DNA of 64,000 bases from Deinococcales bacterium (GCA_031414595.1 JANNVX010000098.1:128001-192000); one strand, 5' to 3'; shown: positions 1 through 64,000, numbered from the stretch's first letter. Notes: generated by a model not told the origin, from the letters alone. Program-made: numbers and translations.

Positions 1-669
1 CGGATAATCCTCGAGTTTCTGCACCGCCCTCGCCAAATTACGAATTGTGCCACCCATAGCGATTAAAGGTGCAAGGTCTTTTTTCATCCGTGCCAGTGTT
101 GGCTCGAGTTGCTTAAGAACAAACTTCTCGAGTTGCTTCACTTCTTGCTCCGAGGTGCGTGCGCCTTGCAAGAACTGCTCGGTCAAACGCACATAACCAA
201 GTGGAAATGCCTGTCCGCCCATAAAAAGTCGGTTCTCGAGCCGAGAAATCTGGGCGCTGCCGCCACCTAAATCCATCACCCAAGCACTTGAGACCTGAAA
301 AGAATTGGCGACGGCTAATGCTCCGTACTGGGCTTCTTCTTCGCCGCTTAGAATGCGAAAATCTAAGTTAAAACCTTTTAGTTGACTTAGAAAATCTTGG
401 CTGTTGGCAGCTTCGCGCACCGCACTGGTGGCAATCACGGTTAATTTCCCGAGGTTGGTAGCGACAGCATAATCGGCATACAATTTTATGGCATCTATTG
501 CCCGTGTGGTGGCGGCTTTTGACAATTTACCTGTGGCTGCAAAACCCTCGCCGAGCCGCACACTTTCACGAATTTCATCAGTCAAACGAAACCATTGACC
601 CGCTTCAAAGTCATAAACCACCAAACGGGCTGTACCACTGCCCATATCCACAATGCCAATGCGCTTCAT
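1..669 (-). CDS. ppx: Ppx/GppA family exopolyphosphatase (runs off window start)
   Basis: Manual translation from ATG 669: MKRIGIVDMGSGTARLVVYD...VRLGEG...IATSAVREAAN...LSGEEEA...MDLGGGSAQ...MGGTIRNLA (ASKHA Ppx motifs); not in ORF track because no stop falls in the window. Confidence 0.9.
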   Translation of the reverse strand, partial: MKRIGIVDMGSGTARLVVYDFEAGQWFRLTDEIRESVRLGEGFAATGKLSKAATTRAIDAIKLYADYAVATNLGKLTVIATSAVREAANSQDFLSQLKGFNLDFRILSGEEEAQYGALAVANSFQVSSAWVMDLGGGSAQISRLENRLFMGGQAFPLGYVRLTEQFLQGARTSEQEVKQLEKFVLKQLEPTLARMKKDLAPLIAMGGTIRNLARAVQKLEDYP

Positions 670-708
670 CTTGGATAGCTTAACAGGCAATAGGCTCGAG
701 AACCTATT

Positions 709-1122
709 TTAACGGGTGAACAATTCGTCTGTACCACCCGCGTGACAATCTTTGCACAGGGCTTGCCCATTAACTCCGCCAGCCCCAATGCTGTACTTGC
801 CATTTCTTGGAAAATATTCTTCGTAATACCAACCGGTAGAGCGTTTATACATTACTGCCACAAAACTTGGACTCGAGATTTTGCCACCTGTTTTAATAAC
901 AATGCTACCAATCGGCAACTTGCCCGATTTTTTCCATGCCGTAGCTGCGATTTTATTGGCAAAAACTTGTTTGGTTTGCCCACTGTGCGGTCCACCAGTA
1001 TCTAAGTTCTTGGCGACCACTGTCCATTTTTCAAACCCCGTTAAGGTTTTGGGTAAACCCACCAGCCCAGTTGCGAGTGCCACGCCGCCCAATACCAAGA
1101 CTGCCAGAATGTATTTGGTCAT
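709..1122 (-). CDS. Secreted c-type cytochrome, cytochrome P460 family-like
   Basis: Signal peptide; VFAN..A, LPIGSIVIK, VAVMYK..GW and C-terminal CKDCH heme motif. Confidence 0.75.
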   Translation of the reverse strand: MTKYILAVLVLGGVALATGLVGLPKTLTGFEKWTVVAKNLDTGGPHSGQTKQVFANKIAATAWKKSGKLPIGSIVIKTGGKISSPSFVAVMYKRSTGWYYEEYFPRNGKYSIGAGGVNGQALCKDCHAGGTDELFTR

Positions 1123-1154
1123 GCCCTATTGTACGTTACGGATTGAGCGAAAGT

Positions 1155-2339
1155 TCAAAAGCGCGTAAAAATAAGCGGCACAAGCATTTCTTCTTTAGAT
1201 AAAGCCCCGTGTGAACCTCGGTGTGGGCGGCTTGGATGCTTACCCGAAAAGGTATAACACAATTGTGCGCCGTCTCTGGGCATAGCAATTAAATCCCCGA
1301 CACGATTGTAAAACGTCTCTTGGGCTGGCAAGCCACCAAAAAGACCGGCTTCCCATGCCTCGGTTGCCAAAACGGTATGCGAAGTCACCTCGAGCATATC
1401 GCGCACCTCCTCGAGCATATTTGGTTTAACCCGAAAAGTACGACAAACCCGATCTCCGGCTGGCGCACTGAGCAGTAGCGGCATCAGGTCACGCTGCTGC
1501 TCTAAGTAAACTGTGTTCTTCTCGAGTAAATCGGTCTGTCCGTGGTCGGCAGTTAAAACAAAGGCGGTTTTCCCATTTTTTGGAATGCGTTTGAGTAATC
1601 TTGCCACCGCGTTATCAAGAGCGTTAATTTCATCCGAGGCTTCTTGGCTGCTGGGTCCGTGCTTATGGCAAACCGTGTCGTAATCTGCCCAATACACAAC
1701 AACCATTTTTTGGTCTGGACTTTGCAAAGCTGGCATGGCAACACTGGCGCAGGTATTGGCACTTAAGTAGCCGTACTGCATGGCTCTTGCCCAATACCAT
1801 TCATTTAACCAAGTAAAACGGTACTCGGTAGGTGCAACCGAAAAAGCACTGATGCCCTGACGCTCGAGTTTGGCGTAAATACTCTGAAAAGTCTTTAAGA
1901 AATCTGGTTCTTCTAGTTTTTTTTGCTTGACCAAATCGAGTTGCCCAATCATTTCTGTGACTGCATTCACTTCCTCGAGCCAAAGCGTGTAGCCAAGCCA
2001 GCCTGTTTGGGCGGGTGTAGCAGCCATGTGCATTCCTGTAATCGCCGCCATCGTGGTACTGGGAAAAACACTGGTCAGGCTGCTTTGCAGACTATCGCCT
2101 AATAATGCCTTGACATTGGGCATATCACCATCAGCGATGTGTTTCTCGAGTTGCCACTGCCCAAGTCCATCGGCAATAAAAAGCACAATCGTTTCGACAC
2201 CCTCGAGCGCTAAAGACTGACGCAAGACTGGCGCAGAGGTAATCACCCCAAAATGCCGAGCGAGACTCGAGGTCAAATTAACAATACTGCCACCAGCGTA
2301 ATCTGGGCTAATCATTGAACTGGGTAATTGAAGTGCCAC
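1155..2339 (-). CDS. Alkaline phosphatase superfamily / type I phosphodiesterase
   Basis: LFIADGLG, SVFPSTT, DTVCHKHG, TADHGQ, GSHGALS motifs. Confidence 0.85.
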   Translation of the reverse strand: MALQLPSSMISPDYAGGSIVNLTSSLARHFGVITSAPVLRQSLALEGVETIVLFIADGLGQWQLEKHIADGDMPNVKALLGDSLQSSLTSVFPSTTMAAITGMHMAATPAQTGWLGYTLWLEEVNAVTEMIGQLDLVKQKKLEEPDFLKTFQSIYAKLERQGISAFSVAPTEYRFTWLNEWYWARAMQYGYLSANTCASVAMPALQSPDQKMVVVYWADYDTVCHKHGPSSQEASDEINALDNAVARLLKRIPKNGKTAFVLTADHGQTDLLEKNTVYLEQQRDLMPLLLSAPAGDRVCRTFRVKPNMLEEVRDMLEVTSHTVLATEAWEAGLFGGLPAQETFYNRVGDLIAMPRDGAQLCYTFSGKHPSRPHRGSHGALSKEEMLVPLIFTRF

Positions 2340-2370
2340 GGCTACAGACTATCATTCAAAAGGAGGTTTA

Positions 2371-3426
2371 TTAAACCATTGGCAACATAATTTGCAGACT
2401 CTGTACCGAAATACGCCCAGCGATGGCTCGAGCCACATCGGTTAGTGCAAGGGCTTCTTTGGTTTCGGGGTTAGAGACCACCACAGGCGCACCATTATCG
2501 CCAGAGATACGCACCTCGAGACCGATTGGAATTTCACCCAGCACTGGAATACCGAGTTTATCGGCTTGGGTTTTCGCACCACCATGACCAAAAATATCGT
2601 AACGAGTCCCCGTGTCTGGGGCAATAAAGTAACTCATGTTCTCGACAATTCCCAAAATCGGCACATTGGCTTTGCGGAACATATCCACGGCTCTGGTTGC
2701 ATCTATCCACGCCACATCTTGCGGTGTAGAAACAATCACTGCCCCGGTAATCGTGACGCTCTGGGTTAGGGATAACTGCACATCGCCAGTCCCCGGCGGC
2801 AAGTCAATCACCAAGTAATCTAAGTCGCCCCAAGCAGCATCGTGCAGGGTCTGACGCACAAAACTATGGAGCATTGGTCCGCGCCAAACGGTGGCTTGAC
2901 CGGGTGCAACCAAGTTGCCCATGCTAATAAATTTTAGTCCGTGTTTCTCGAGCGGCAGCATTTTTTTGTTCTCATCGGCAAACATCCGTTCATCGGTCAT
3001 GCCAAACATATGGGCGATGCTTGGTCCGTAGACATCCGAATCGAGCAGTCCGACTTTAGCCCCGTCTTTTGCCAGCGAACAAGCAATATTGGCTGCCACC
3101 GTACTTTTTCCCACGCCGCCTTTACCGCTTCCCACCACAATCACATGTTTGACCCCCGGAATTGGGTTCTCAGTTGGCGGACGAACCTGAGCGCCAAAAC
3201 TGACATTAACATGCTTGACTTCTGGGACTTTCAGCACGGCTGCCACCACATCCGATTCAATTTTGCCTTTGAGCGGACAGGCTGGGGTGGTCAGTTCAAC
3301 TTTGACATGAACGATGTTGCCTTCGATACTCATTTTTTCAATCATCCCGAGTGACACAAGGTCTTTGTGCAGTTCGGGGTCATCCACAGTTCGCAGGGCA
3401 TTCATCACAGCAGCTTCTGAAATCAT
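2371..3426 (-). CDS. apbC: Mrp/NBP35 (ApbC) Fe-S cluster carrier ATPase with N-terminal DUF59 domain
   Basis: DPEL..DLV, TTPACP, GSGKGGVGKST, DLPPGTGD, ENMS; ATG 3426 has TATCCT 6 nt upstream (leaderless start). Confidence 0.92.
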   Translation of the reverse strand: MISEAAVMNALRTVDDPELHKDLVSLGMIEKMSIEGNIVHVKVELTTPACPLKGKIESDVVAAVLKVPEVKHVNVSFGAQVRPPTENPIPGVKHVIVVGSGKGGVGKSTVAANIACSLAKDGAKVGLLDSDVYGPSIAHMFGMTDERMFADENKKMLPLEKHGLKFISMGNLVAPGQATVWRGPMLHSFVRQTLHDAAWGDLDYLVIDLPPGTGDVQLSLTQSVTITGAVIVSTPQDVAWIDATRAVDMFRKANVPILGIVENMSYFIAPDTGTRYDIFGHGGAKTQADKLGIPVLGEIPIGLEVRISGDNGAPVVVSNPETKEALALTDVARAIAGRISVQSLQIMLPMV

Positions 3427-3461
3427 GAAGGCAGGATAACGTCTTTGGGTTAAAACTTGCG

Positions 3462-3592: not shown

Positions 3593-3620
3593 TGGTGAAT
3601 GGTTTATACTTTGGCGCACG

Positions 3621-4631: not shown

Positions 4632-4690
4632 CCCAAGCAGACTCGAGCTTCAGCAATTGAAACAAAAGTCATCAGCCCGTATGCTGGGCT

Positions 4691-11358: not shown

Positions 11359-11550
11359 TTAGGCTGCGGCTATCGCTAAAACCTGACGACCATCGTAGTA
11401 ACCGCATTCAGCACAAACTACGTGCTGTGGTTTCTTAGAGCCACAATTCTTGCAAGTGGTCAAATTAGGGGCAACCAAGGCATGGTGCGAACGACGCATA
11501 TCGCGCTTGGACTTGCTGGTCTTCTTTTTTGGAACGGGGTGCTTTGCCAT
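11359..11550 (-). CDS. rpmF: 50S ribosomal protein L32 (Zn-ribbon form)
   Basis: [22 protein letters not shown]...CKNCG...CAECG; GGAGG RBS. Confidence 0.98.
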
Positions 11551-11721
11551 TTTTATTTCCTCCGAGCGTGTGGGATAAGCCCAGTCAGCCACTTTTTTTA
11601 CTGTTGTTAGCGTGAGTAGCCTCACGGCAGCCCAAGGAGTATAGCAAAAGCTAAGCAGATTGCAAGGGGGCAAAAGGATAGCACGAGGTGTCTCTCTCAT
11701 TTTTCACGGTAGACTGCAAGC

Positions 11722-12857: not shown

Positions 12858-13142
12858 ATGTTTGCAATTGTTAAATCTGGTGGTAAACAACACCGCGTTG
12901 AAGCTGGTAGTGTTATCCGAGTCGAAAAACTGAACGCCGAAGCTGGCGCAAGTGTTGAGTTGCCTGTGCTGATGTTGGGTGGCGACAGCGTTACTTTTAA
13001 TACCGGTAATGTCAAGGCAGAAGTTCTGCGTCACGTCAAGGGCGAGAAAATCTTTATTGACAAGTACAAAAGCGGTATTCAGTACCGTCGTCGTAATGGT
13101 CATCGTCAAGCCTACACCGATGTCAAAATCACCAGCTTATAA
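12858..13142 (+). CDS. rplU: 50S ribosomal protein L21
   Basis: [14 protein letters not shown]...GHRQAYT. Confidence 0.98.
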
Positions 13143-13170: not shown

Positions 13171-13443
13171 ATGGCACATAAAAAGGGCGTGGGTAGTACC
13201 CGCAACGGACGCGACAGCAATCCAAAGTACCTTGGTGTAAAACGCTTTGGTGGCGAACTGGTCAAGGCTGGGAATATCTTGGTTCGTCAACGTGGCACAA
13301 AGTTCAATGCTGGCAAGAATGTTGGCATGGGACGCGACCACACGTTGTTTGCGCTCGAGACCGGCTTAGTCAAATTCCAAGACAAAGGCGCTTTTGGGCG
13401 TTTTATTCACATCGAACAACTGGCTGCTGCGGCAGACGATTAA
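13171..13443 (+). CDS. rpmA: 50S ribosomal protein L27
   Basis: [24 protein letters not shown]. Confidence 0.99.
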
Positions 13444-13570: not shown

Positions 13571-14881
13571 ATGACCAAGTTTCGTGATGTTCTCGAGGTC
13601 GAAATAACGGCGGGTAAAGGCGGCGACGGCAGCATGTCGTTTCTGCGTGGTTCGCATCAACCCAAAGGTGGTCCTGATGGCGGACATGGCGGTAAGGGCG
13701 GCAGTGTTTTCCTGCGCTCTATTCAAGGGGTCGAAAGCCTAACCAACATCGTTGGTAAGCGCAAATTCAAAGCCGAGAATGGTGGTTACGGGGCTGGGCG
13801 TTTAATGCACGGGGCAGATGGTGCAGATTTTACGGTGGATGTTCCTGTCGGTACAGTCTGCATAGATTTAGCGACCAATAAAATCATTGCCGATTTACTC
13901 GAGGTTGGGCAAGTTCAATTGGTAGCCAAAGGCGGCTTAGGCGGTCGTGGGAATTCGGCATTCTCGAGCAGTACCCGCCGCAGTCCACGTTTTGCCGAGC
14001 TTGGCACGATGGGCGACGACCTAAAAGTTAGGCTCGAGTTGCGTTTAATTGCCGATATTGGTTTGGTCGGTTATCCAAACGCGGGTAAATCGAGTTTACT
14101 CCGAGCCATGTCCAATGCTAATCCCGAAGTGGCAGCCTATCCGTTTACGACCCTCAATCCGATTCTTGGAATCATCGAACGTGGTGATGACGAGTTAAAC
14201 CGTCTGACCCTCGCCGATATTCCGGGGATTATCGAAGGGGCGCATGAAGGTAAAGGCTTAGGTCTAGAGTTTTTGCGGCATATTTCGAGAACGCGCCTTC
14301 TGGCTTTTGTGCTTGACGGCAACGAAGCGCCGCGTGAGCATCTCGAGGCGTTGCGATTTGAATTGCAAAGTTATGACCCGACACTGCTCGAGTTACCCGC
14401 GATTATTATTGTTAATAAGCTCGATTTAATAGACGAAGAAATCAGAACCATGATTGAAGCCGAACTCTTTGATTTTGGTTTGCCTGTGCTTTGTGTCAGT
14501 GCCTTAGAGGGTATTGGTTTAGATACCCTGCGTGAAACCTTATTTCAAGTGTTGCCCGCTAAGATGCAGCGAGCCAGCCTTGTGGTGCGCGACACGATTT
14601 CTGGACCTGAACCAGTACGTGTAACAGCCGACACCGATTTTTATGCCGATGGGACACGCCTGTGGAATGTGACGGGTGGAACGTTTGGCGCTCGGATTGA
14701 ACGTTTCTCGAGACATTTAGAAGATGCTGCCGATTACTTAGAAAAACTCTTTAAGCGCGAAGGGCTAAACGCCCAGTTGCGCCGCGCAGGGGTTAAACCG
14801 GGCGATACGGTTAAAATTGGTGAATTTGCCTTTGAGTTTTTTGAAGATGAATTCTCGGATAGCGAACACAAACAAGTTTAA
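13571..14881 (+). CDS. obgE: GTPase ObgE/CgtA
   Basis: Gly-rich Obg fold, [25 protein letters not shown]-terminal OCT domain; GAGGAG RBS. Confidence 0.97.
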
Positions 14882-17830: not shown

Positions 17831-19144
17831 ATGAAAAAACGGTTTTTGGCTCTTGGTTTGGCAGTGTTAAGCGCAGCAACACTGACTCTGGCACAAGGTG
17901 GACGCACCACCGTCACCTTCTGGTACGCACTTGGCGGCAGCATCGGCGAACAAATCGAACTCTTGGTCAAAAACTACAACAGTAGCCAAGACAAAGTAAC
18001 CATCAAAGCCGAATTTAGCGGTAATTACGACGATACCCTCAACAAAATGCGTGCCGCCCTACAAGCTGGTAAGGGCTACCCCAACGTGGTACAGGTCTAC
18101 GACATTGGCACACGCTTTATGGTGGATTCTGGGGCAGTTGTGGCACTCGAGGACATGGCAAAAAAAGAAAACTTTGACATCTCTAAACTGGTTTCACAAC
18201 CACGCAATTACTACACCGTAGACGGCAAAATGTACAGCTTGCCGTTTAACTCGAGTAACCCACTTCTTTACTTTAATGCCAGCGTCCTCAACAGCAGCAA
18301 TATCGAACAACGCCCGTTTTATAACCTCGCGCAACTCGAGGACACGATTAAGCGCTTAACAGTTAAAGACGCAAGCGGTAAAACCAGCCGTTACGGCATT
18401 ACTTGGCATGCCGATTCTTGGTTTGTTGAACAATTTGGCTACAACAGTGGTCAAGCCTACTGTAACAACGAAAACGGACGCAAAGCCCGCGCCACCGAAA
18501 CCACCTTCAACAACCCAGCCGCCGTTGCCTTCTTAGAGATGATGGGACGTTTGGTGTCTGGTGGATTTGCTGCCCCAGTCGGACGTGACGGCACTGCCAG
18601 CTTAAACACTTTTGTCAACGGACAAGCCGCTATTTACGTTTCCTCTACCGCCAATTTGTTTGGTGCAACCCGGGCTGTTGGTGGAAAATTCCCAATCCGT
18701 ACATCTTTTTACCCGTTCCTCAAAGAACGCAATGGTGTCGCTATTGGCGGCGCAAGCCTCTGGATGCTCAAGGGTTTTACTGAGACCGAACAAGACGGCG
18801 CATTTAGCTTCATCAAATGGATGCTTGAGCCAACCACCCAAGGACGCTGGCACTTAAACACGGGTTACTTTCCAGTCATTCAAGGTGTGACCAAACGCCC
18901 AGAAGTACAAACTGGTCATACCAAAAATCCAAATTTTATCACCGCTATTCGTCAACTCGAGACCAGCAAAGTCAACACCACCAGCGCTGGTTGCTTGATG
19001 GGACAATTCACCGAGATTCGTACCTATGTGGTCAGTGCATGGGAAGAAGTCCTCAAAGGCAAACCCGCTAAACAAGCCTTGGATGAAGCGAAAGTTAAAT
19101 CCGATGCTGCACTGCAACGCTACAACGCGACTGTGGCTCGTTAA
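17831..19144 (+). CDS. ABC substrate-binding protein (UgpB-like)
   Basis: Signal peptide, PNVVQVYDIGT, LPFNSSNP.LYFN, IGGASLW, W...TGYFP; GGAGG RBS. Confidence 0.88.
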   Translation: MKKRFLALGLAVLSAATLTLAQGGRTTVTFWYALGGSIGEQIELLVKNYNSSQDKVTIKAEFSGNYDDTLNKMRAALQAGKGYPNVVQVYDIGTRFMVDSGAVVALEDMAKKENFDISKLVSQPRNYYTVDGKMYSLPFNSSNPLLYFNASVLNSSNIEQRPFYNLAQLEDTIKRLTVKDASGKTSRYGITWHADSWFVEQFGYNSGQAYCNNENGRKARATETTFNNPAAVAFLEMMGRLVSGGFAAPVGRDGTASLNTFVNGQAAIYVSSTANLFGATRAVGGKFPIRTSFYPFLKERNGVAIGGASLWMLKGFTETEQDGAFSFIKWMLEPTTQGRWHLNTGYFPVIQGVTKRPEVQTGHTKNPNFITAIRQLETSKVNTTSAGCLMGQFTEIRTYVVSAWEEVLKGKPAKQALDEAKVKSDAALQRYNATVAR

Positions 19145-19198: not shown

Positions 19199-19230
19199 AC
19201 CCCGCTCTGACTCGAGCGGGGTTCTTTATT
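19199..19230 (+). terminator. Intrinsic terminator after substrate-binding protein gene
   Basis: ACCCCGCTC-TGACTC-GAGCGGGGT followed by TCTTTATT. Confidence 0.7.
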
Positions 19231-19356: not shown

Positions 19357-19382
19357 AAAAACCCCTCGAGTGTCTCGAGGGG
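19357..19382 (-). terminator. Intrinsic terminator of phytase-like gene
   Basis: CCCCTCGAG-N3-CTCGAGGGG plus T-run on minus strand. Confidence 0.75.
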
Positions 19383-19414: not shown

Positions 19415-20659
19415 TTAGCGTCCAACACCTGCGGCGACATTCAATGGTTTCTCGAGTTTCAACCAGATAAACTCGTTGGGGTCTTTGACATCTGCGCCGC
19501 GTCCACCTTTGGCATCAAAGTTATTATCGTTGGCAACCAAAATTGTGCTGCTGTTTAAGACAATTACATTTTCTATTGTTACAAATGGGAAGGCAAAGAC
19601 ACCATTAACGGTGCTTGGCGCAAGTCTATTGGCATCTGAGATGTTCATTAAATCTGCCACCAATTCTTTTTGGGCTGCGCCATTTGCATCTTTTTTGCTC
19701 AGGTCAATTTTATAGATGCGTTTGAATTTTGCAGTTGCGCCAGAGCCGTTGTCGCGCTCAATCACCAAGTATTCGTTGTCGTTAATCACCGTGAAATCAC
19801 CAATCGCATGATTGGTTTCTTCCATTTTGTAAAAGGCGGCAATGCCAACAAATTTCTTAGTTGCCATATCAAATTCGTTAATTCGTAACATCCCAGCCGT
19901 GTCGGTCGAAACACTGCCCTCGAGCAAGCCATAAATTTTTGATTTACTTGGATTGGTGGTCATGCCTTCGTAACCCCTCGAGCCGCCAAGGTTTGCACTG
20001 CTCATTTGTCCGGGGTTTGGCGAAGCTGCGAGGACAGCAGGATTGTTTGGGCTACGCACCAAGTCCTTGCTTGGGTCTTTGCCTGTTCCGTAATCTGGGG
20101 TTGGGATTGGGGCAGACAGCACTTTGCCTGTGGTGTCTACGTTAATTAAGTACGGTCCAAATTCTTCGCCAATCCAAATTGTGCCATCCGCTGCAAGCAC
20201 AAAGCTCTCTGGGTCAAAATCAAAACCAGTCAGGAAACGACTGGCGGAGTTTTCATTAACGATGATGAACGGGACTTTTTTATCTGGGTCACGCAATTGA
20301 ATAAAGCTGTTGACTTTTACCGTACCAGCGCCGCCAGTCATGGTTTTTGCAGCTAAACTGACATTGTACAAACGCAATAAGTAATCAACACTGTTGTACT
20401 TTGTACCAAAACCGTTGTCCGAAAGCATCCAATAATTGCCGTTCGCAGCAAACTGAATGCCACTAAAGCCCTGTACAGGTTGGCTGGCAAAACGTGGAGC
20501 CGCCGCTTTGCTTCCATTGGCATTAAATTGTCCACTGGCAGCCCCTCTCGAGAAGGTATCGGCAGGCAAAACCGCAAAACCAATCAGGTCGGTTTTAAGA
20601 CTTTGGGCGAGGACGGTAGCCGTGGCAAGAATGCCAAATGCAGATAAGATTTTTTTCAT
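19415..20659 (-). CDS. Secreted esterase-like activity of phytase family protein
   Basis: Signal peptide; QPVQGFSG, SDNGFG, DPES, GEEFGPY, SRGYEG, NDNNF. Confidence 0.88.
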   Translation of the reverse strand: MKKILSAFGILATATVLAQSLKTDLIGFAVLPADTFSRGAASGQFNANGSKAAAPRFASQPVQGFSGIQFAANGNYWMLSDNGFGTKYNSVDYLLRLYNVSLAAKTMTGGAGTVKVNSFIQLRDPDKKVPFIIVNENSASRFLTGFDFDPESFVLAADGTIWIGEEFGPYLINVDTTGKVLSAPIPTPDYGTGKDPSKDLVRSPNNPAVLAASPNPGQMSSANLGGSRGYEGMTTNPSKSKIYGLLEGSVSTDTAGMLRINEFDMATKKFVGIAAFYKMEETNHAIGDFTVINDNEYLVIERDNGSGATAKFKRIYKIDLSKKDANGAAQKELVADLMNISDANRLAPSTVNGVFAFPFVTIENVIVLNSSTILVANDNNFDAKGGRGADVKDPNEFIWLKLEKPLNVAAGVGR

Positions 20660-24881: not shown

Positions 24882-26149
24882 AACGCCAGTTGCTTAACGC
24901 TCCAAGCACCCTGCTCGAGTCCGACCAACAGTATTTTGTTGTTTTTGGACTCGAGCAGCCTGTACCCCAAGCCAAACGGATTGGGGATTTCTTTTTCACC
25001 AAAAACTGTATTTAGTTCGCCTGTTGTAGTCAATTTTTGCATTTGAATGGTGGCTGAGGTTACTCCGTGCAAGACCAATCCACCATCGTTCCAAATGATC
25101 ACTTTTTTCAAGGTTTGGCTTAACCAAATCCCTCCATTAGCACTTCGCACTATAGGCATGGAAAAGGGTGGGAAAGTAGGCTCAGAAAGCGGTATTGACG
25201 CTCCAAATTCTTTTTGTACCGTATTTTTTGTATCCAATGACCAGATTCTTAAACCGCTACTGCAATCACCACTGTTGTGGTTCATGAATACAGCCGTGTT
25301 GTCTTGGCGTAACCCAAAATACTGAACCCCACCACCGTTGGTGCAAGTCAGGGATTCAAAACCCTCGGTTTGTTGTTGCGGCTCGAGTTGCCCTTTTTGA
25401 TTAAACCGATGAATCCAAATCGGAGGCTGATAGGTCGAAGCACCGGCTGGACTGTTTAAGTAAGCTGACGAAACCAGTGCTGCACCGCCAGTTGGGGTTG
25501 GTACTAGCGCATCAATTTGCACATTTGGATAGTCTATATCGGTGCTGGCAAAACCTGCTTTGCCAAGGCTCGAATCTAAGCGTCCTTGGTTGGTTATTTT
25601 TATCAGTAGCGGGTTTAGGTCATCATCATCAGAATTTTCGCTTTTTACTCGAGGGCGTTCTAAGAGGGCTGCCCAGACCGAACCATCGGCGTTGAGTGCC
25701 ACTTTTTGCATCGGGAACATTGTTTTTTGTCTGCCTGTCGGAAAGGTAAACACACCTTTTTGCCCATAACTCGAGTCTAGCGTGCCATTTATTGTAAAAC
25801 GCAGAATTTGCTTTGGCTGCACCACCAACACACGACTTTGCGAATCCACCAAAACTTGTCCTAATTGCTCTAATTGCAGTTTTCCAGCTTTGCCAAAACT
25901 CGAGTCGAGTTGTCCATTGGGAAGTAATCGAGCAATTGTCTGAATCTTATTTTGGGTTTCGCCACTTAAGACAATCCGACCTTGGGTGTCGGTGCTGGCT
26001 TTTGGCGTAAATTTTGCCGTTACAGACTCGAGTCGGACTGTACCGTTTTGACCAAAGCTCGGGTCAAATGTTTGATCCTGTGAAATTGCCAAGCCAGTCA
26101 ACCCTAAACCAGTCAGTGCAAGGCAGATAAACCTCAGTCGTGTTTGCAT
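24878..26149 (-). CDS. Secreted beta-propeller protein with delta-60-like repeats
   Basis: Signal peptide; repeated R/K...NG.LD.SFG..G motifs. Confidence 0.75.
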   Translation of the reverse strand: MQTRLRFICLALTGLGLTGLAISQDQTFDPSFGQNGTVRLESVTAKFTPKASTDTQGRIVLSGETQNKIQTIARLLPNGQLDSSFGKAGKLQLEQLGQVLVDSQSRVLVVQPKQILRFTINGTLDSSYGQKGVFTFPTGRQKTMFPMQKVALNADGSVWAALLERPRVKSENSDDDDLNPLLIKITNQGRLDSSLGKAGFASTDIDYPNVQIDALVPTPTGGAALVSSAYLNSPAGASTYQPPIWIHRFNQKGQLEPQQQTEGFESLTCTNGGGVQYFGLRQDNTAVFMNHNSGDCSSGLRIWSLDTKNTVQKEFGASIPLSEPTFPPFSMPIVRSANGGIWLSQTLKKVIIWNDGGLVLHGVTSATIQMQKLTTTGELNTVFGEKEIPNPFGLGYRLLESKNNKILLVGLEQGAWSVKQLAF

Positions 26150-26320
26150 CTCTCGAGTCTAAAAAATTAAATGAATGATTGATGTGAACCTGGTTCTCAA
26201 GGTGAGATTTTGCAGCACATGATCTGAATTCAATCTCTTTGCAGAGAACCCGTCTCGAGACTAAAAAATGAGAATCAGATGAGCTTCTACAGCCATGGCA
26301 TTATATGCTTTCTTGAAGGT

Positions 26321-31462: not shown

Positions 31463-31485
31463 TGAACTAAAATCCGTGAATCGTT

Positions 31486-31651
31486 AGGCGAGGCTTCTTG
31501 ACCATAAACGCGCACCTGACGGGCATGGTCGCATGCCTCGCCCCTACGACAAAAATCTCGTGCTAAACCGTAGGGGTTAGGTATGCCTAACCCCTTAAAG
31601 GTCAATGGTGATCCATTCTCAAATCGGGATGTTATTTCTGGACGATTCCTA
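31486..31651. mobile_element. REP-pair / MITE-like non-autonomous element, copy A (partial)
   Basis: Inverted GTAG-REP pair (31486-31547 interrupted; 31570-31595 intact); 31613-31643 matches reverse complement of 60349-60379 at 28/31. Confidence 0.7.
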
Positions 31652-37626: not shown

Positions 37627-38437
37627 ATCGCTTGCGCCCCGTTAAATCAGCCTCGAGCCATGCGTTCCAGCCTGTTTGCAACATCTCGGTTTGCAAAATC
37701 GGAGCATTGCGTGGGTCTAACTCGAGCAGCAAAAAACCATTTTTGGTTAAGTAATCTGGGGCTTGTAAAACCAGTTCTCTTGCTAAGCCCAGACCATCCG
37801 CACCAGAAAAAAGGGCTTGACGGGGTTCTTGTTGTACTTCAGGCTCGAGCAGGTCAGTTTCGGGAAGATACGGCGGATTAGAAACAATCACACTAAATTG
37901 AGGAGTCAAGCCGTTTAGCAAAGAAGTTTCTAGGACATGGATATGCAGCTTTAAGCGCTTAGCATTCTCGAGTGTCAAAGTAATCGCACTAGGGTTAATG
38001 TCGGTTGCCCAAACCTCGAGACTCGGGCGTTCAGATTTTAAGGCAAGAGCAATCGCCCCAGAGCCACAACCGACATCCACCACCCGCCCTGAATCACCTA
38101 GCCGATCTAAGGTCAGTTCGACCAAGCGCTCGGTCTCTGGGCGCGGAATCAGCGCACCAGAACACACTTTTAATTCCAAACCATAAAATTCGGTACTGCC
38201 AATAATCCACTGCAACGGTTCTCGAGCCGCACGGCGATGCACCCAAGATTGATAAGTCTCGAGTTCGGCATGGCTCAGGATTCGGTTCGGTTCAAGTAAT
38301 ACCGCTCGAGTCGCACCCAGCGCAAAAATTAGCAGCCACTGTGCATCAAAGACTGGACTCGAGACTTGGGCTACCTCGAGTTGGATAATCGCTGCTTTTA
38401 GGGTTTCTGAGAGGGTGATAAAGTCTCCGCTTGCCAC
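37607..38437 (-). CDS. prmC: Release factor glutamine methyltransferase PrmC (start uncertain)
   Basis: R...EPLQ.I.G, LIPRPETE, DVGCGSGAI, SNPPY. Confidence 0.93.
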   Translation of the reverse strand: MASGDFITLSETLKAAIIQLEVAQVSSPVFDAQWLLIFALGATRAVLLEPNRILSHAELETYQSWVHRRAAREPLQWIIGSTEFYGLELKVCSGALIPRPETERLVELTLDRLGDSGRVVDVGCGSGAIALALKSERPSLEVWATDINPSAITLTLENAKRLKLHIHVLETSLLNGLTPQFSVIVSNPPYLPETDLLEPEVQQEPRQALFSGADGLGLARELVLQAPDYLTKNGFLLLELDPRNAPILQTEMLQTGWNAWLEADLTGRKRFIVAQK

Positions 38438-39942
38438 GTTACAATACTTTTTTGCCCCACATCAAAAACCACACCAATACCAATCACGGTTTTGGCGTAG
38501 CCTTTAGCATACTGCCCGTCTTTGATTTGCTTTAAGGCTGTCTCCGCATCACCACCGAGCTTAAATTCAAATAAAATAATCTGCTCTGGCGTGTCTACAA
38601 CTGTATCTATGCGTCCCAAACTGGTTTGTACTTGGCTTTGAGTAGGAAAACCGGTGCTGACCAACATCAAGTGCATTAAGCTGTGCATATACATTTCGCG
38701 CTTGGGGAATATTTCGTATGGAATAGCCGCAAAAACCCGATTGCAAATCTCAAAAAAAACTGTCCAATCTGGCGCAATTAAAGCATCATGTAACTCGAGA
38801 CCAAAACTGCCGTGTTCATGGATGTTGCGTTCAGCGTAAACCTCGAGCAGACCCTTGGAGAAGGCTTGGCGTACTTCTTCATTGGGATAGGACAATTGAT
38901 AGCGCGTTCCTTGTAAGCTGATAATTTTTTGCTTTATCGTTAAATAACCTGTCTGAAACATCAAAGAAACGGACTCGAGACGTTCGAGGCTTGGGCTTGA
39001 AATGCTCATTTCATCCAGTGCGATTGAGTTAAAACGCAGTGGGTCAAGGGCGGCTTTTTTAATCATTTCAAGCAGAAAGGTTGGTGTGCCAGTCTCATAC
39101 CAAAATGACCTGAATTCTTGTTGTTCTAAAAAAAGTAGGAAACTAAACGGGCAATAGACTTTCTGCACCGAGTCCCATGAATATCCGTTGTACCAATGCT
39201 TTATGGCTTCCCAAAGTTCGGTCATGGGAACAGCAAACTTTTTTTGCAAAGACTCGAGGTGACCCTGAAAATTCGTTTCAATTTCAGTGTGGGTATAACC
39301 ACACAAGACCGCGTATTTATCATCAAGGGAAATATCTTGGAGGTTGTTCAGATCAGAAAATAAACTCAGTTTACCGATTTTAGAAACACCCGTTAAAAAA
39401 ACCAAATGTAAATAGGCATCCATTGGTTTTAAAACACCATATAGGCTTTTGAGGGTCGCTTGATGTTCTGCTCTTTTTTCTGGCTCGAGTAGGTAGTCAG
39501 TGATGGGTTTATCGTACTCGTCAATCAGTACCACCACTTTATCGGTTTTGGATAACTCGAGAATCAAGCTACGAAAAGCACTGGAAACAGTATCACCTTG
39601 GAGTTCTATGCCGTACTCAGCAGCTACGATTTGCAACCACTCGAGAATTCCTTTTTGCAAGGATTGGTCACGAAAACTGATGTTACTAAAATCAATCCGA
39701 ATTACTGGGCGCGGCTTAAAGTCGTGCTTGTCATAAAGCCACAAATCTTGAAATAAGTCTTTGCGCCCTTCATAAATGGCTTTTAAGGTGGACAGCAACA
39801 ATGATTTACCAAAACGCCTTGGGCGAGACAGGAAAAACACACCCGCTCGCAAAAAAGCCTCGAAGTACATGGTTTTATCCACATACACAAGCTGATTTTG
39901 ACGCAGTTTGGCAAAATCTTGTATCCCGATTGGTAAGTTCAC
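38398..39942 (-). CDS. AAA-ATPase-like protein with C-terminal PD-(D/E)XK nuclease
   Basis: LPIGIQDF...YVDKT, RPRRFGKS, LIDEYDKP, WYNGY, QTGYLTI, PN.EV, GRID...FEFK. Confidence 0.92.
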   Translation of the reverse strand: MNLPIGIQDFAKLRQNQLVYVDKTMYFEAFLRAGVFFLSRPRRFGKSLLLSTLKAIYEGRKDLFQDLWLYDKHDFKPRPVIRIDFSNISFRDQSLQKGILEWLQIVAAEYGIELQGDTVSSAFRSLILELSKTDKVVVLIDEYDKPITDYLLEPEKRAEHQATLKSLYGVLKPMDAYLHLVFLTGVSKIGKLSLFSDLNNLQDISLDDKYAVLCGYTHTEIETNFQGHLESLQKKFAVPMTELWEAIKHWYNGYSWDSVQKVYCPFSFLLFLEQQEFRSFWYETGTPTFLLEMIKKAALDPLRFNSIALDEMSISSPSLERLESVSLMFQTGYLTIKQKIISLQGTRYQLSYPNEEVRQAFSKGLLEVYAERNIHEHGSFGLELHDALIAPDWTVFFEICNRVFAAIPYEIFPKREMYMHSLMHLMLVSTGFPTQSQVQTSLGRIDTVVDTPEQIILFEFKLGGDAETALKQIKDGQYAKGYAKTVIGIGVVFDVGQKSIVTWQAETLSPSQKP

Positions 39943-46954: not shown

Positions 46955-47485
46955 GTGGCTGGCAAACGCGAAATTATTATCACCACAGGTTTACTTGCGA
47001 TTCTTGGTGGAGCGAGTTTTTTTAGCTTACGCCCCAATGAAATCCCAGCCGCTCAAAATGCCCTCGAGCGTTTACCAATTCGCGTGGCAGTGGCAGGCGA
47101 AATCAAAAAACCAGGAGTTTATCAGTTGCCTTGGGGTTCACGTACCGAAGCGGCGCTGGCTGCGGCTGGTGGAACAACCAGTGATGCCGAACTGAGTTTA
47201 ATCAATCCCGCCCAAATCCTGACCGATGGTGATCAGGTTCGCATACCAAGTAAACAAATCAGTGCCAGCCCAGAAGAACCAGTCTCGAGTAGCACATCCA
47301 CAGGTGAACGCATTAACCTCAACACCGCTACTCAAGCCCAAATCGAGGCTTTACCGGGGGTTGGACCGAAAATGGCAGAACGTATCTTGCAAGCCCGTCC
47401 ATTCTCGAGCCTCAAAGACCTAGATGCGGTTAAAGGAATAGGGACAAGTATGCTTAAAAAACTCGAGCCTCTAGTCAGATTTTAG
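46955..47485 (+). CDS. comEA: Competence DNA-binding protein ComEA
   Basis: TM, SLBB domain (V.VAGE..KPGVY.L), INLNTA...LPGVG and V.GIG HhH motifs. Confidence 0.92.
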   Translation: MAGKREIIITTGLLAILGGASFFSLRPNEIPAAQNALERLPIRVAVAGEIKKPGVYQLPWGSRTEAALAAAGGTTSDAELSLINPAQILTDGDQVRIPSKQISASPEEPVSSSTSTGERINLNTATQAQIEALPGVGPKMAERILQARPFSSLKDLDAVKGIGTSMLKKLEPLVRF

Positions 47486-60333: not shown

Positions 60334-60340
60334 ACGGCGT

Positions 60341-60556
60341 TAAAACTTGTCCTGAAATAACTTCCCGATTTGGGAATGGTGTTTTCATTATTCCCAAGCT
60401 GGACAGACACAGGGGTCTCTTGACCATAAGATGCGGTCGCCTGTCCCTACAAAATTCATGAAACACGTCAGGTAGGGGCGGACCCCTGTGTCCGCCCTGT
60501 GACCAATCGTATGTTTTTTGTCTGGAAATCAGGAAACTATTCTTAGGCAGTTCCTA
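60341..60556. mobile_element. MITE-like element, copy B: degenerate terminal inverted repeats enclosing a REP pair
   Basis: Ends match 19/31 as inverted repeats; REPs at 60401-60450 (interrupted) and 60472-60497 GTAGGGGCGGACCCCTGTGTCCGCCC. Confidence 0.72.
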
Positions 60557-60567
60557 GGTTCATTGCC

Positions 60568-61182
60568 TTAAAGTGCATTCAAAACTCGAGCTTCTAACGC
60601 CGATAATTCTTGTTTGGCTCGAGGAAAAACCCCAAGGGCATCGTGTAACTCGAGGGCAGAAAAGAGGTCGCTCGAGACAACTTCTCCCCACTTTGGCTGG
60701 CTACCCCAGAATTCGGCGCGTAACATCCATGTGGTTTCTTGTTTATACGCCACGGCATAAGCTGCACCGAGTTCACGCAGCACCGAAAAAGTAGCGGTCT
60801 CTGAACGGGCTTGCTCGAGTCGTACCACAGGCACTCGAGGGCGCAAGCGCAAAGTGGCACTTTCAATCCGAACACGGTGGCTTAAACTGGCATCTGAACC
60901 AATAACAAGGCGTACAGCATCGTACCCTGCTACATTCTTGACGACTTTTCCACCAACACTGACCGTACCGTGAGCCGCCGTATAGGTTAGCCCAAGGACA
61001 TCTTTACGCATTGGTGGCATCTCGAGCAAGCCAAGCCCGCCAGACAACAACCAATCCTCGAGCGTCAGTGGCAAGCGTGGAGCGCGGTACTGCAAGCCAC
61101 TTGGCAGGGCAGCCTCGAGTTGTTCTAGGGTAGTGTCGCCAGATACAATCGCGTATTGGTCTTCGGGGTTTATTTCAATCAT
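60568..61182 (-). CDS. Short FAD-binding oxidoreductase, GlcE-like
   Basis: GGKVVKNVAGYD..RL.IGS, A.LRL.P. Confidence 0.75.
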   Translation of the reverse strand: MIEINPEDQYAIVSGDTTLEQLEAALPSGLQYRAPRLPLTLEDWLLSGGLGLLEMPPMRKDVLGLTYTAAHGTVSVGGKVVKNVAGYDAVRLVIGSDASLSHRVRIESATLRLRPRVPVVRLEQARSETATFSVLRELGAAYAVAYKQETTWMLRAEFWGSQPKWGEVVSSDLFSALELHDALGVFPRAKQELSALEARVLNAL

Positions 61183-61247
61183 GGTCTTAGACTAACCAAT
61201 TTTCATGACCAGTGCTTTTTGCCGCTTGATTTGTGCTACAACAAAGC

Positions 61248-61997
61248 ATGAAACGATTTTTATTGGCTGCCCTGACCTTCTCGAGTTTTATGGCACTGAT
61301 TCCATCTGCGCCGACGGCTGCCACAGTCCAAGGCTTACCTTTAATTCGTGAACAAAATAGTTTTTTGGCAACCGCTCGAATAGATTCCCAAAACTTAAAA
61401 GTACGGGTTCTCGAGTACAACGCAGCCTATAGTGGCATCGTCCATGCGTATTTTATTTCTAAGGATTTCAAAAATTATTATTTTCAGTACCCTGACGAAA
61501 CCGAAAAAGGTTCTTATCTACTACCGTTACCACCGATGGAAGCTGGCACTTATGACCTGATTCTCGAAATTACAGGTGGCAACGGTCATGCCCATAACAA
61601 TCCGCGTTTTGTGCAAGTTTACCCAGTCAATTTTGAAGTGCTGACCAGCAGCCCAGAACTCGAGCCAATTCGTCGTTTGGCATTAAAAGAAACTGTGCCG
61701 AACCTTAAACCAGCAGGACAAGTCTCGAGTTTTGAACTAACAACCCTGCTAGATGGTGCGCCAGTCGCATGGAATCCGTATTATGTGCATCAGTTTATTC
61801 TAAAAACCGATTGGTCATATTTTAAGCACGATCATCCCAACGCTAAAGAACAGGGGCTTGGTTCAGTGCAGAGCAATTTTACCTTCCCAAGCGCTGGTGA
61901 ATATGTGTTGTGGCAATTTCTCGAGACAGGTGTGCGGGTGGCTGGTCAAAAATACAACCCTGTTCTGCGTTACCCAAGTCTGTTTAAGATTAACTAA
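61248..61997 (+). CDS. Secreted hypothetical protein, His-containing, two related domains
   Basis: Signal peptide; H.Y.IS.DF..Y...P / H..I...D...F.H.HP...F.FP..G.Y.LW. Confidence 0.65.
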   Translation: MKRFLLAALTFSSFMALIPSAPTAATVQGLPLIREQNSFLATARIDSQNLKVRVLEYNAAYSGIVHAYFISKDFKNYYFQYPDETEKGSYLLPLPPMEAGTYDLILEITGGNGHAHNNPRFVQVYPVNFEVLTSSPELEPIRRLALKETVPNLKPAGQVSSFELTTLLDGAPVAWNPYYVHQFILKTDWSYFKHDHPNAKEQGLGSVQSNFTFPSAGEYVLWQFLETGVRVAGQKYNPVLRYPSLFKIN

Positions 61998-63043
61998 TTT
62001 GGTCTAACCAATTCAACTTGTACCGAACTGATGGTTTGCGCTGCCACTTCAAGCATAATAAACGGGCTGGTTGGGGTGTTGCTAAAATTATTGCCCGTCG
62101 GTTCGCGTAACTCGAGGGTGATTCTTAGCGTGCCACGGTCAAAGTTCGCGCTTTTATAAGCAAGGCTGTAGCCTGTGGTCGGTTTACGCCCAAGGAAGAC
62201 CGTGACCATACGGCGATTGAAGAAATCTATTTTTGGTGTTACTGGAACTGGGTTTTGACCACCCAGCGCGATTTGCCAAGTGCGGGCGTAATCATCGGCG
62301 GTACTGTCTACCCTTGCCCAAAAATTCGTATCTCGGTGGGTGCTGAATGCACCAACGGCGGTGACATCCAAGACAGGATTGAGTGGCGCTGGCGCATTTT
62401 GTTGTAACCACATGCCCTCATAACCAAATTGGACTGCCAGCACCGAACGCCGTGTGCTGTTCGGGGTTGGGTTAAAACTGGTCTCGTTGCCATCTAAACT
62501 CGAGTCTGGCAGGGTGGCAATTAAAAATGCACCACGAGATTTGAGGTAGCCTTCTAAAGAGGTTGCTTCGTCTTTCCATAAACTACCAGCCCCAAGTAAA
62601 CCATCTCGAGGGGTGGGCAGGGTGTTGAGTTGTTCGCCAGCCTTTAATTTCTCTAAGACGGTAAACCAGCTTTTACCATCCCAAAGGTACACCGAACGCA
62701 AATCGGTGTTGGCTTTGATCGTCATGCGTTCGCCACTGCGTTTGGCACTAAAGGCGGCTAAGTTACTGGTTACAGGCAGTTGCCAACTGCCGTTGCCGTT
62801 GACTTCAAGTGCGCCGCTGACCTGAAACCCTTGGGTGTTTTGACTGGGGCTTTGGATTTCTAAGGTTTGGTTACGCCCAGCCACACTGCCCTCGAGTTTA
62901 CGTTTGAAGGTATTTTCTTGGTCATAAAAGACCACATGACGCTCGCCTAAACCGAGCAGCACAATGTCTGAGACTGTGTAGGACGCTTTATCTTGCGCTA
63001 ATGCAACAGCACCAACGAGCAGGACGGTCAAAAGTCGCTTCAT
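61994..63043 (-). CDS. Secreted protein with C-terminal PrcB-like domain
   Basis: Signal peptide; P.IDF...V.VFLG.KPT.GYS...P...TSPF. Confidence 0.72.
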   Translation of the reverse strand: MKRLLTVLLVGAVALAQDKASYTVSDIVLLGLGERHVVFYDQENTFKRKLEGSVAGRNQTLEIQSPSQNTQGFQVSGALEVNGNGSWQLPVTSNLAAFSAKRSGERMTIKANTDLRSVYLWDGKSWFTVLEKLKAGEQLNTLPTPRDGLLGAGSLWKDEATSLEGYLKSRGAFLIATLPDSSLDGNETSFNPTPNSTRRSVLAVQFGYEGMWLQQNAPAPLNPVLDVTAVGAFSTHRDTNFWARVDSTADDYARTWQIALGGQNPVPVTPKIDFFNRRMVTVFLGRKPTTGYSLAYKSANFDRGTLRITLELREPTGNNFSNTPTSPFIMLEVAAQTISSVQVELVRPN

Positions 63044-63110
63044 GAGTATAGTGTAAAGTATTTCTCAGCCCATTGCATGAGGTGTAACCCAAGGAAAGAG
63101 ATTAAAAAAT

Positions 63111-63797
63111 TTAGGCTTTTAGTAATCCAAGGTCAGCCGAATTTAATTCGCGCCACTCACCGGGGCGTAAATCATGGATTTGTAAGCCACCAATTCGGGT
63201 TCGCATTAAGCGCAGCACCTCAAGACCGACCGCCGCCACCATTCGCCGTACCTGATGCTTGCGCCCCTCAAGCAGCACCATTCGCAAACCATCCTTTGCC
63301 TTAAATAGTGCGTGTGGTTTGGCTTCCCCATCCTCGAGCATGACCCCTGCAAAAAGTGCCTCGAGTTGGTCAGGACTTGGGACTGGCTCAGTCCAAACTC
63401 GGTATTCTTTTTCGTGATGATACCGAGGATGGGTTAATTCTAAGGTTAAAGCCCCGTCTGTTGTCAAAATCAGCAACCCTTCCGAAGCCCGATCCAAACG
63501 CCCAACTGGATGTAACCCTGATACGCTCGGCACAAGCTCGAGAACCCCTTGCCGCCCGAGTTCATCCGAAGCACTGGTCACCACCCCACGCGGCTTATAC
63601 AAGGCAAAAGTCACCTGTCTAGCTAAAAACTCGAGCCGCTTGCCATCCACTTGTACATCATCGGTCTCGAGTGCCGATTGCCCAAGAGTCGCCACCACCC
63701 CACCCACCGTTACCCGACCCTCGAGCAACAAATTTTCGGCTGCCCGCCGCGAAGCCACCCCCGCCCTCGCCAAGAGCTTTTGCAAACGCTCAGACAT
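63111..63797 (-). CDS. rRNA pseudouridine synthase (RsuA/RluB family)
   Basis: RLQKLLARAGVASRR S4 domain; VGRLD..SEGLL.LT.DG; EGRKHQVRRM. Confidence 0.95.
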   Translation of the reverse strand: MSERLQKLLARAGVASRRAAENLLLEGRVTVGGVVATLGQSALETDDVQVDGKRLEFLARQVTFALYKPRGVVTSASDELGRQGVLELVPSVSGLHPVGRLDRASEGLLILTTDGALTLELTHPRYHHEKEYRVWTEPVPSPDQLEALFAGVMLEDGEAKPHALFKAKDGLRMVLLEGRKHQVRRMVAAVGLEVLRLMRTRIGGLQIHDLRPGEWRELNSADLGLLKA

Positions 63798-63808
63798 TAG
63801 CTAGAGCC

Positions 63809-64000
63809 TCATTTGAGTGGAATGTCCGCTTTGAGAATCATGGCTTCGCCTTCGCCGTCGCGCTGCATGTCAATGTTGAAATTCTGGGCATTGGGGAAGT
63901 ATTTTTTTAAGACACTAAGCAGTTCTTCGCGCAGCATTTGTTCCTTGCCGGGTGGTAAACCGGCTCGGTCATACGCAAGCATGACCTGCAAACGATTTTT
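63809..64000 (-). CDS. minE: Cell division topological specificity factor MinE (5' end outside window)
   Basis: KNRLQVMLAYDRA...LREELL.VL.KY...L.A.IP. Confidence 0.88.
   Translation of the reverse strand, partial: KNRLQVMLAYDRAGLPPGKEQMLREELLSVLKKYFPNAQNFNIDMQRDGEGEAMILKADIPLK

Follow-up and report, generated by a model that had tools for sequence, protein, structure and literature searches.

Why does one six-base palindrome, CTCGAG, recur about once every 183 bp along a 64-kb stretch of DNA from a Deinococcales bacterium (GCA_031414595.1, JANNVX010000098.1:128001-192000)? We analyzed this stretch of 64,000 nucleotides (hereafter the window) together with the assembly that contains it, G000, which comprises 4,488,778 bp in 120 contigs at 47.2% GC and carries the window at C98:128001-192000. 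An earlier note, made from the window sequence, had described CTCGAG as a highly iterated palindrome (HIP) resembling HIP1 of cyanobacteria. Between positions 1 and 64000, the bare hexamer occurs 350 times, compared to a mean of 7.56 (standard deviation 2.68, largest value 16) in 100 dinucleotide-preserving shuffles, none of which reached 350. A recount from the site list reproduced exactly the 17 copies that the note had reported in the first 3 kb.

The excess extends to the entire assembly. G000 contains 23,235 copies of CTCGAG, compared to 972 expected from base composition (zero-order), a 24-fold excess. It is by far the commonest hexamer; the six next most frequent are its own overlapping words, and AAAAAA is present in 5,616 copies. 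Genome-wide density is 5.2 per kb, or about one site per 190 bp, and ranges from 2.3 to 6.1 per kb on each contig listed. None of the ten positions on either side of the G000 sites shows a base preference, indicating that the hexamer recurs by itself and not as the center of a dispersed repeat. The reversed word, GAGCTC, is found six times. A maximal-order Markov null expects 19,988 copies; as its 5-mers are themselves dominated by the motif, this null is circular and uninformative, and we dropped it. We consider it close to certain that CTCGAG is a true highly iterated palindrome of the uncultured Deinococcales family to which G000 belongs. We did not find genome-wide hyper-abundance of CTCGAG in Deinococcota described in the literature, whose supplementary files may hold motif tables.

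We next asked how the sites are distributed relative to genes. Genes were taken as the longest non-overlapping open reading frames (ORFs) of at least 100 amino acids, which yielded 3,866 ORFs covering 88% of G000 and counts small genes such as rpmA as noncoding. As a null, synonymous codons were shuffled within genes in ten replicates, keeping every protein sequence and the codon usage of each gene. In the window, 187 sites occupy the CTC-GAG frame, 53 the nCT-CGA-Gnn frame and 69 the nnC-TCG-AGn frame, and 42 lie outside ORFs; the shuffle gave 19.5, 5.5 and 5.2 sites in the three frames, 30 in total. For G000 as a whole, 20,420 coding sites were observed compared to 2,021 after shuffling, an approximately 10-fold excess to which each frame contributes. 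Counts were 12,102 in the CTC-GAG frame (mean of the ten shuffles, 1,319), 4,005 in the nCT-CGA-Gnn frame (427) and 4,313 in the nnC-TCG-AGn frame (276), corresponding to 9- to 16-fold excesses. The Leu-Glu frame, CTC-GAG, holds 59% of the coding sites.

Density is 5.14 per kb within ORFs and 5.35 per kb outside them. The profile is flat across gene starts and ends, with a dip to 3.6 per kb in the first 20 bases of ORFs and a slight rise to 6.3-7.2 per kb on either side of stop codons (6.4-6.6 per kb immediately after them). The proposal that the excess arises at the level of DNA, independently of frame, was therefore borne out, since all three frames are enriched and density outside ORFs is equal. 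The excess also survives a null that preserves amino acids and dipeptides, and it extends beyond the Leu-Glu frame. The force responsible acts on DNA, not on codons or peptides.

This force leaves a mark on the proteome. CTCGAG encodes 60% of the 20,173 Leu-Glu pairs in G000; elsewhere, CTC makes up 7.9% of Leu codons that precede other residues and GAG makes up 20% of Glu codons that follow other residues. The observed-to-expected ratio (O/E) of Leu-Glu is 2.23, about 11,000 pairs above expectation and the highest among dipeptides seen more than 200 times. For Glu-Leu the ratio is 0.98, and for Ser-Ser, which the nnC-TCG-AGn frame can encode, it is 1.50. Thus, under the pressure for CTCGAG, Leu-Glu has become the dipeptide most over-represented in the proteome, and a word preference at the DNA level can measurably shift protein composition. 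Genes in the top quartile of amino acid identity carry 4.5 sites per kb, compared to 5.7-6.4 per kb in the lower half (Spearman -0.24, p = 0.006, 129 genes).

To place the window, we compared its gyrB gene with public sequences. The best relatives come from metagenome-assembled genomes (MAGs) named 'Deinococcales bacterium' (78% identity; 6.0 CTCGAG per kb over a 6.6-kb locus) and 'Trueperaceae bacterium' (62% identity; 2.55 per kb), in agreement with the Deinococcota origin that the note had proposed. We then surveyed 161 Deinococcales genomes. All 19 genomes of the window's family, which span five genera and are incomplete assemblies or MAGs, contain 4.3-6.8 CTCGAG per kb. At the other extreme, the 40 genomes of family f3 each contain merely 26-1,193 copies, and other families fall in between. 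Family f3 (for example G020, G084, G092 and G157) is strongly depleted in both CTCGAG and GAGCTC, and a search of its 40 genomes found no endonuclease of the XhoI family. Families f2 and f5 were represented by small samples, 28-80 kb from each of five genomes. In these, CTCGAG is 5-10 times more frequent than the zero-order expectation and 2.6-7.5 times more frequent than after synonymous shuffling in nearly every frame; the exception is the Leu-Glu frame of G019, at 1.2-fold. Outside ORFs the same samples contain 1.5-3.3 sites per kb, compared to 0.2-0.34 expected. Two genomes of sister genera, G128 and G152, have about 3 sites per kb. These data suggest that the excess is graded across the order and extreme in the window's family. 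As its strength runs from strong in one family, through weaker in samples from two, to depletion in f3, the system is open to a comparison of which genes track motif density.

If the word is maintained, it should change more slowly than the sequence around it. We aligned 174 kb of a congener, G001, to G000 at 90.3% identity. Of 905 coding CTCGAG sites, 788 are intact, compared to 61% of other hexamers in the same frame; outside ORFs, 44 of 60 are intact, compared to 58% of the background. Where both genomes conserve the Leu-Glu pair, 459 of 500 copies of CTCGAG are unchanged, compared to 161 of 274 pairs encoded in other ways (odds ratio 7.9, p = 5e-27). Among these conserved pairs, 37 changes run toward CTCGAG and 41 away from it. 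The difference from background widens in more distant genomes: 88 of 104 coding sites are kept in G007 (79% identity over 22 kb) compared to 28% of background, and 74 of 131 in G006 (75% identity) compared to 20%. Outside ORFs in the window, 16 of 26 sites are kept compared to 60% of background.

We also reconstructed gains and losses over the window by parsimony in four genomes, using the tree (((G000,G005),G001),G004), which was assumed from identity levels. CTCGAG is present in all four genomes at 116 of 233 positions. The 233 positions include 27 gains, 29 losses, 50 ambiguous cases and 11 that are incompatible with the tree. Loss of CTCGAG is thus slower than that of comparable sequence by a factor of 3 to 5, and gains approximately equal losses, as fits a weak bias at each site. 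Converting the loss ratios with the standard weak-selection formula, we infer a scaled bias of about 2-3 per site, which alone would predict a 10- to 20-fold enrichment, close to that observed.

Between G000 and G001, 117 coding sites have changed; in 29 of them at least three bases differ, compared to about 9% of background hexamers. TTAGAA is the usual alternative at changed sites, and individual positions switch between it and CTCGAG again and again within the genus, often where lineage-specific changes form a small cluster. Most single-base differences are synonymous transitions. By hand count, 9 of 20 recent single changes affect the central C/G and 5 of 20 the outer C/G; as a sign of 5-methylcytosine, hypermutation of the central CpG is unconvincing at 9 compared to 5. 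Site changes require no special mutational mechanism. The turnover fits replacement of alleles by recombination among relatives and is also compatible with a landscape that favors the exact word alone. We considered one repeat as a polarized record of gains, a modular non-coding element at 31465-31650 that resembles miniature inverted-repeat transposable elements and has dozens of partial copies in G000 and its congeners; its copies were too few and too fragmentary for this purpose.

Spacing between sites is nearly geometric (mean 191 bp, coefficient of variation 0.99), with a deficit, relative to a geometric distribution, of both short and moderately long gaps. Gap quartiles are 72, 138 and 250 bp, compared to 55, 132 and 264 bp expected, and the 95th percentile is 530 compared to 570 bp. 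Below 400 bp, G000, whose longest contig is 305 kb, has no spacing periodicity other than 3 bp. Close neighbors interfere: the fraction of Leu-Glu pairs written as CTCGAG rises with distance to the nearest other site, from 27% (7-12 bp) through 43% (13-18 bp), 52% (19-24 bp) and 57% (31-60 bp) to 66-68% (61-400 bp). Retention between G000 and G001 was independent of neighbor distance (132 of 155 sites within 30 bp compared to 700 of 810 further away, p = 0.70), so the interference may stem from a tendency to avoid hairpins, or slippage between 6-bp repeats that lie close together. Gaps of 6 bp, which would generate GAGCTC, are absent. Gaps of 7 bp (CTCGAGNCTCGAG, where N is any base) number 101, several-fold more than those of 8-10 bp, each in a unique context.

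Resident and imported DNA differ in site content. GC content is 32-44% in the longest stretches free of the motif and in the 5-kb segments poorest in it, and density in such islands is still 0.8-2 CTCGAG per kb. These regions encode a surface-polysaccharide cluster, a defense island and toxin-antitoxin genes. Imported, low-GC islands hold fewer CTCGAG than resident DNA. The word is a practical marker for binning these genomes and for spotting imported DNA in them. The motif-poor defense island (L473, G000:C14:17001-26700) encodes Double-GTPase 1 and 2, GASH helical, SIR2-like and large TPR proteins. Restriction-modification genes with a patchy distribution (for example, C43:7367-10882 and C104:14948-18766) have a native density of 4-9 CTCGAG per kb, which suggests that they circulate within the gene pool of the family and do not come from outside. 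We also scanned viral contigs for three sites within about 80 bp. The scan was not selective for phages of this family, returning at least 80 loci, mostly from phages of 58-72% GC in which GAGCTC was often equally common.

Other palindromes are scarce in G000. Forty-three of the 64 hexamer palindromes occur at no more than 0.2 times the zero-order expectation (GGGCCC, 0 copies; TGCGCA, 2; CGATCG, 3; GAGCTC, 6). GGCC is present in 152 copies compared to 13,951 expected, and the O/E of the Gly-Pro dipeptide is 0.32; restriction avoidance, too, seems to shape protein composition.

As the note had linked the excess to a cognate methyltransferase of the XhoI/PaeR7I type and to methyl-directed repair, we searched for the enzymes involved. 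The XhoI-family endonuclease (PF04555) is found in none of the 19 family genomes, G000 included, and in six of the 161 genomes of the order. In those six, it adjoins a 340-amino acid PF01555 methylase, to which the best relatives in G000 are merely 25-29% identical. Two loci of family f4, L383 (G021:C1:73699-77256) and L384 (G105:C8:34983-38546), encode an intact XhoI-family endonuclease with the 340-amino acid methylase; those f4 genomes still contain 0.7-1.8 CTCGAG per kb. The endonuclease gene of G031 is broken by two stop codons.

G000 itself contains about 26 DNA methylase genes, most of them at native CTCGAG density and with specificities that cannot be read from sequence. We compared methylases of five family genomes, each of a different genus (completeness 87-94%, and no less than 91% in four), using families PF07669, PF01555, PF00145 and PF02384, and PF02086 in four of the five and in G000. 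No methylase orthologue was common to these genomes. Matches to the first four families differ in length and score from genome to genome; G013, a complete single contig, has no PF01555 match and G010 has no PF00145 match. None of the seven methylases of G013 has an orthologue in G000, the best match being 33% identical.

Two individual candidates for the cognate enzyme were rejected. An Eco57I/TaqI_C methylase on C89 is cut by the contig end and has an orthologue of at least 70% identity in just 2 others of 31 genomes, with weaker homologues in eight more; in one orthologue it is part of a 1,403-amino acid fused enzyme. A 420-amino acid methylase-like protein on C72 has any match in just 8 of the 31 genomes, G000 included. 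Scanning all ORFs for [DNS]PP[YFW] gave 50 matches, of which 20 were checked against Pfam and three without a family were translated; no further DNA methylase emerged. Vsr (PF03852) was not found in the five genomes searched for it. Among words one transition away, CTTGAG/CTCAAG has an O/E of 1.07 and TTCGAG/CTCGAA of 1.23 in G000; transversion neighbors are depleted (0.17-0.69). Neither the cognate methyltransferase nor the link to methyl-directed repair was borne out by these searches of gene content.

The putative replication origin, a dnaA-dnaN spacer with a cluster of matches to the DnaA box (C14:88108-88452), has no CTCGAG in its 345 bp. The sites that flank it are 792 bp apart, and the 330 bp upstream of dnaA contain two. 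A separate observation concerns GAGCTC: locus L079 (G013:C1:1608708-1611454) encodes a D12-class methylase beside a 315-amino acid protein that resembles the SacI endonuclease family weakly, at a score below threshold. G011 has both genes of the pair (77% and 51% identity), which could relate to the near absence of GAGCTC.

How does this system compare to known ones? Uptake signal sequences (USS) of Pasteurellaceae and DNA uptake sequences (DUS) of Neisseriaceae are likewise enriched across a family in all frames and sometimes paired in terminator stems, in organisms with competence genes. They are thought to spread by molecular drive through transformation, as we propose for CTCGAG. USS and DUS are 9-12 bases long, asymmetric and spaced about 1 per kb, and their preferential uptake has been shown experimentally. 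In contrast, CTCGAG is a bare symmetric hexamer without flanking preference, at 5.2 per kb. Vsr repair in E. coli, through its effect on CCWGG, illustrates that a process acting on DNA can raise the frequency of a methylase target. That enrichment is few-fold. Here, the excess is 24-fold, Vsr was not found in the five genomes, and the expected depletion of neighboring words is absent. The XhoI/PaeR7I and BsuM restriction systems also recognize CTCGAG. Restriction normally selects against its own site, and, as described above, the 19 family genomes lack the XhoI-family endonuclease. Unless its sites carry a modification, XhoI would reduce these genomes to fragments of about 190 bp.

The closest parallel is HIP1 (GCGATCGC) and the alternate HIPs of cyanobacteria, which are lineage-wide, hyper-abundant short palindromes, independent of frame and present in intergenic DNA. 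As for CTCGAG, HIP1 sites are conserved beyond background and scarce in imported DNA, and HIP1 function is now discussed as an aid to transformation. Three reports state that HIP1 is conserved beyond neutral expectation, for which the authors argue selection (PMC5861425); that HIP frequency tracks cognate methylases, with sites about 1 per kb (PMC4390886); and that HIP1 is proposed as an uptake signal accompanied by the conserved methylases DmtA and DmtC (PMC13756078). Our motif differs in its phylum, in being a hexamer and not an octamer, and in its density of about 1 per 190 bp; CGATCG has just three copies in G000. HIP1 shows periodicity on a scale of 10-90 kb; the spacings examined in G000 extend to 400 bp. 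Moreover, unlike HIP1 with DmtA and DmtC, no family-wide methylase was found for CTCGAG. Of the proposed HIP-like system, the frame-independent, lineage-wide excess therefore stands, but a conserved cognate methylase was not found.

Methylation of CTCGAG is described elsewhere. A Nocardia orphan methyltransferase recognizes the same hexamer and has a non-restriction role; the motif clusters beside dnaA and follows one methylase (Blow et al., 2016, PMC4752239). In the family studied here there is no origin cluster and no shared methylase, and the excess is genome-wide. A preprint on hot-spring epigenomes (10.64898/2026.06.24.734251) describes CTCGAG methylation in 'Group 2' hosts and phages; its available portion does not state the phylum, and we treat it as a lead only.

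Our favored but tentative reading, one we hold with well under even confidence, is that CTCGAG serves as a tag of self DNA that is read during DNA uptake or recombination. A candidate dimeric protein that reads CTCGAG would act in natural transformation or homologous recombination, so that DNA bearing the tag would be preferentially taken up, kept or recombined. Alleles with the motif would then spread through the population by molecular drive, each site carrying a small advantage in transmission or fitness, and a family-wide methyltransferase would not be required. Changes of several bases at once, positions incompatible with the tree and clustered changes fit as recombination-like signals. 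comEC is present in 18 of the 19 family genomes, and the one without a match is 79% complete.

Several observations weigh against this reading. Control genomes of Thermus and Deinococcus carry comEA and comEC too, and little or no excess is seen in the sister genera sampled, so the presence of these genes does not discriminate. We found no CTCGAG-reading protein and no direct link between the motif and uptake. At 5 sites per kb, almost any fragment is already tagged, and thus the gain from one more site should saturate. Known uptake sequences, at 9-12 bases, are asymmetric and about five times sparser than CTCGAG. Sites outside ORFs are kept modestly above background, less than their 23-fold enrichment predicts, although the numbers are small. 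Finally, the native site density of the patchy restriction-modification genes indicates that they, too, have long been exposed to the process.

In another explanation, CTCGAG is methylated by an orphan enzyme and its sites are kept for a part in mismatch repair, in the control of replication or in transformation that depends on methylation. In cyanobacteria, HIP1 and each of the alternate HIPs come with a matching methylase (PMC4390886). CTCGAG is a classical type II site; Nocardia pairs an orphan CTCGAG methylase with origin-linked site clusters (PMC4752239) and a Halorubrum strain has 5-methylcytosine at CTCGAG (PMC8112702). G000 has some 26 methylase genes from which to choose. However, no methylase is shared across the family, even when the complete G013 genome is included, the XhoI-linked type was not found, and the best candidates in G000 are patchy (a clear orthologue in 2 others of 31 genomes for one, any match in 8 of 31 for the other). 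The putative origin also lacks sites and transitions at the central CpG show no clear excess, and on balance we doubt this explanation while regarding it as a serious contender. Alternatively, the sites could bind an abundant DNA-binding or nucleoid protein, or could be Chi-like marks of self for a translocating nuclease or helicase, with selection for coverage. Uniform density over genes, spacers and contigs, the weak per-site bias, the short-range interference (27% at 7-12 bp rising to 66-68% at 61-400 bp) and the scarcity of short and moderately long gaps would all be expected. Yet no candidate protein was found, overall spacing is near random with only the 3-bp period below 400 bp, retention does not depend on neighbor distance, and the interference could instead reflect avoidance of hairpins or slippage. 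We therefore judge coverage to be unlikely.

Two further explanations were weighed. In one, the motif has no function of its own, and neutral biased repair or gene conversion turns near-cognates or heteroduplex mismatches into CTCGAG in short patches. Such an activity would act on all cellular DNA, in every frame and in spacers, and would gradually convert imports, as the 0.8-2 sites per kb in the islands might reflect. Nevertheless, Vsr was not found in the five genomes searched, the neighbors that T:G repair would consume are not depleted, and conversion of each site independently does not predict short-range interference. For HIP1, site conservation is taken as evidence against replenishment by biased repair (PMC5861425). 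We consider this explanation quite improbable. In the other, CTCGAG is a by-product of codon usage or dipeptide content, or an artifact of assembly. The Leu-Glu frame does hold the majority of coding sites, and high-GC relatives gain some CTCGAG from preferred CTC and GAG codons. However, the ten-fold excess over a shuffle that preserves proteins and codon usage, the equal density outside ORFs, the comparison with Leu-Glu held fixed and the six copies of the reversed word refute a by-product, and the presence of the excess in 19 independent assemblies argues against an artifact; we give this explanation virtually no weight.

The self-tag reading, in its broader form, is that this family, and more weakly much of Deinococcales, wrote a word into its genomes for methylation-independent tagging by a CTCGAG-reading protein, a possibility we again advance tentatively and as far from probable. 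If this were true, about 11,000 dipeptides of the proteome would have been remodeled to fit CTCGAG, and highly iterated palindromes would be a general trait that evolved repeatedly in lineages capable of natural transformation, not a peculiarity of cyanobacteria linked to orphan methylases. For about thirty years HIP1 has lacked an explanation, and work on it has been almost solely in cyanobacteria. CTCGAG provides a second, independent and denser system in another phylum, and one that appears to lack the conserved cognate methylase that would usually be suspected.

The window contains examples of these patterns. On the minus strand, a terminator-like hairpin at 19361..19382, CCCCTCGAG-TGT-CTCGAGGGG, has a 9-bp stem built of two CTCGAG (at 19365 and 19374). 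It folds at -19.4 kcal/mol (z -1.95), is followed by a T-run on that strand and lies downstream of a gene ending at 19418. A second terminator-like hairpin, read from sequence on the plus strand (19201..19222), has the form CCCGCTC...GAGCGGG with CTCGAG inside, precedes a T-rich run and lies downstream of a solute-binding protein gene ending at 19144. Sites at 26152 and 31718 are directly upstream of start codons at 26149 (minus strand) and 31726. rplU (12858..13142, plus strand) and rpmF (11362..11700, minus strand) are free of CTCGAG. comEA (46955..47485, plus strand) has an ordinary architecture of SLBB and helix-hairpin-helix domains. The first of the two hairpins, the sites before the two start codons (placed near 26152 and 31719), the two motif-free ribosomal protein genes and comEA had all been picked out in the earlier note and were recovered here.

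Two Leu-Glu pairs on the plus strand illustrate turnover when aligned with relatives. The pair at 13354..13359 in rpmA is CTCGAG in G000 only; relatives have TTAGAA, TTGGAA, TTAGAG, CTGGAA or CTGCAA, and one genome has TTGATT, which exemplifies a recent gain involving several nucleotides at once. The pair at 14717..14722 in obg is TTAGAA in G000 and three relatives, CTTGAA in a fourth and CTCGAG in G005, G007 and G002, and exemplifies a homoplastic site with two states.

The stretch, in whole or in part, is present among the contigs of 10 public runs, four of which contain it in full; no RNA run is listed among them, and none offers raw long reads. At 38401-39942 on the minus strand, the window encodes a 514-amino acid protein with predicted AAA-ATPase (PF09820) and PD-(D/E)XK nuclease (PF08011) domains. 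The family is multi-copy, with paralogues of 64-70% DNA identity on at least five other contigs of G000 and many copies in each congener.

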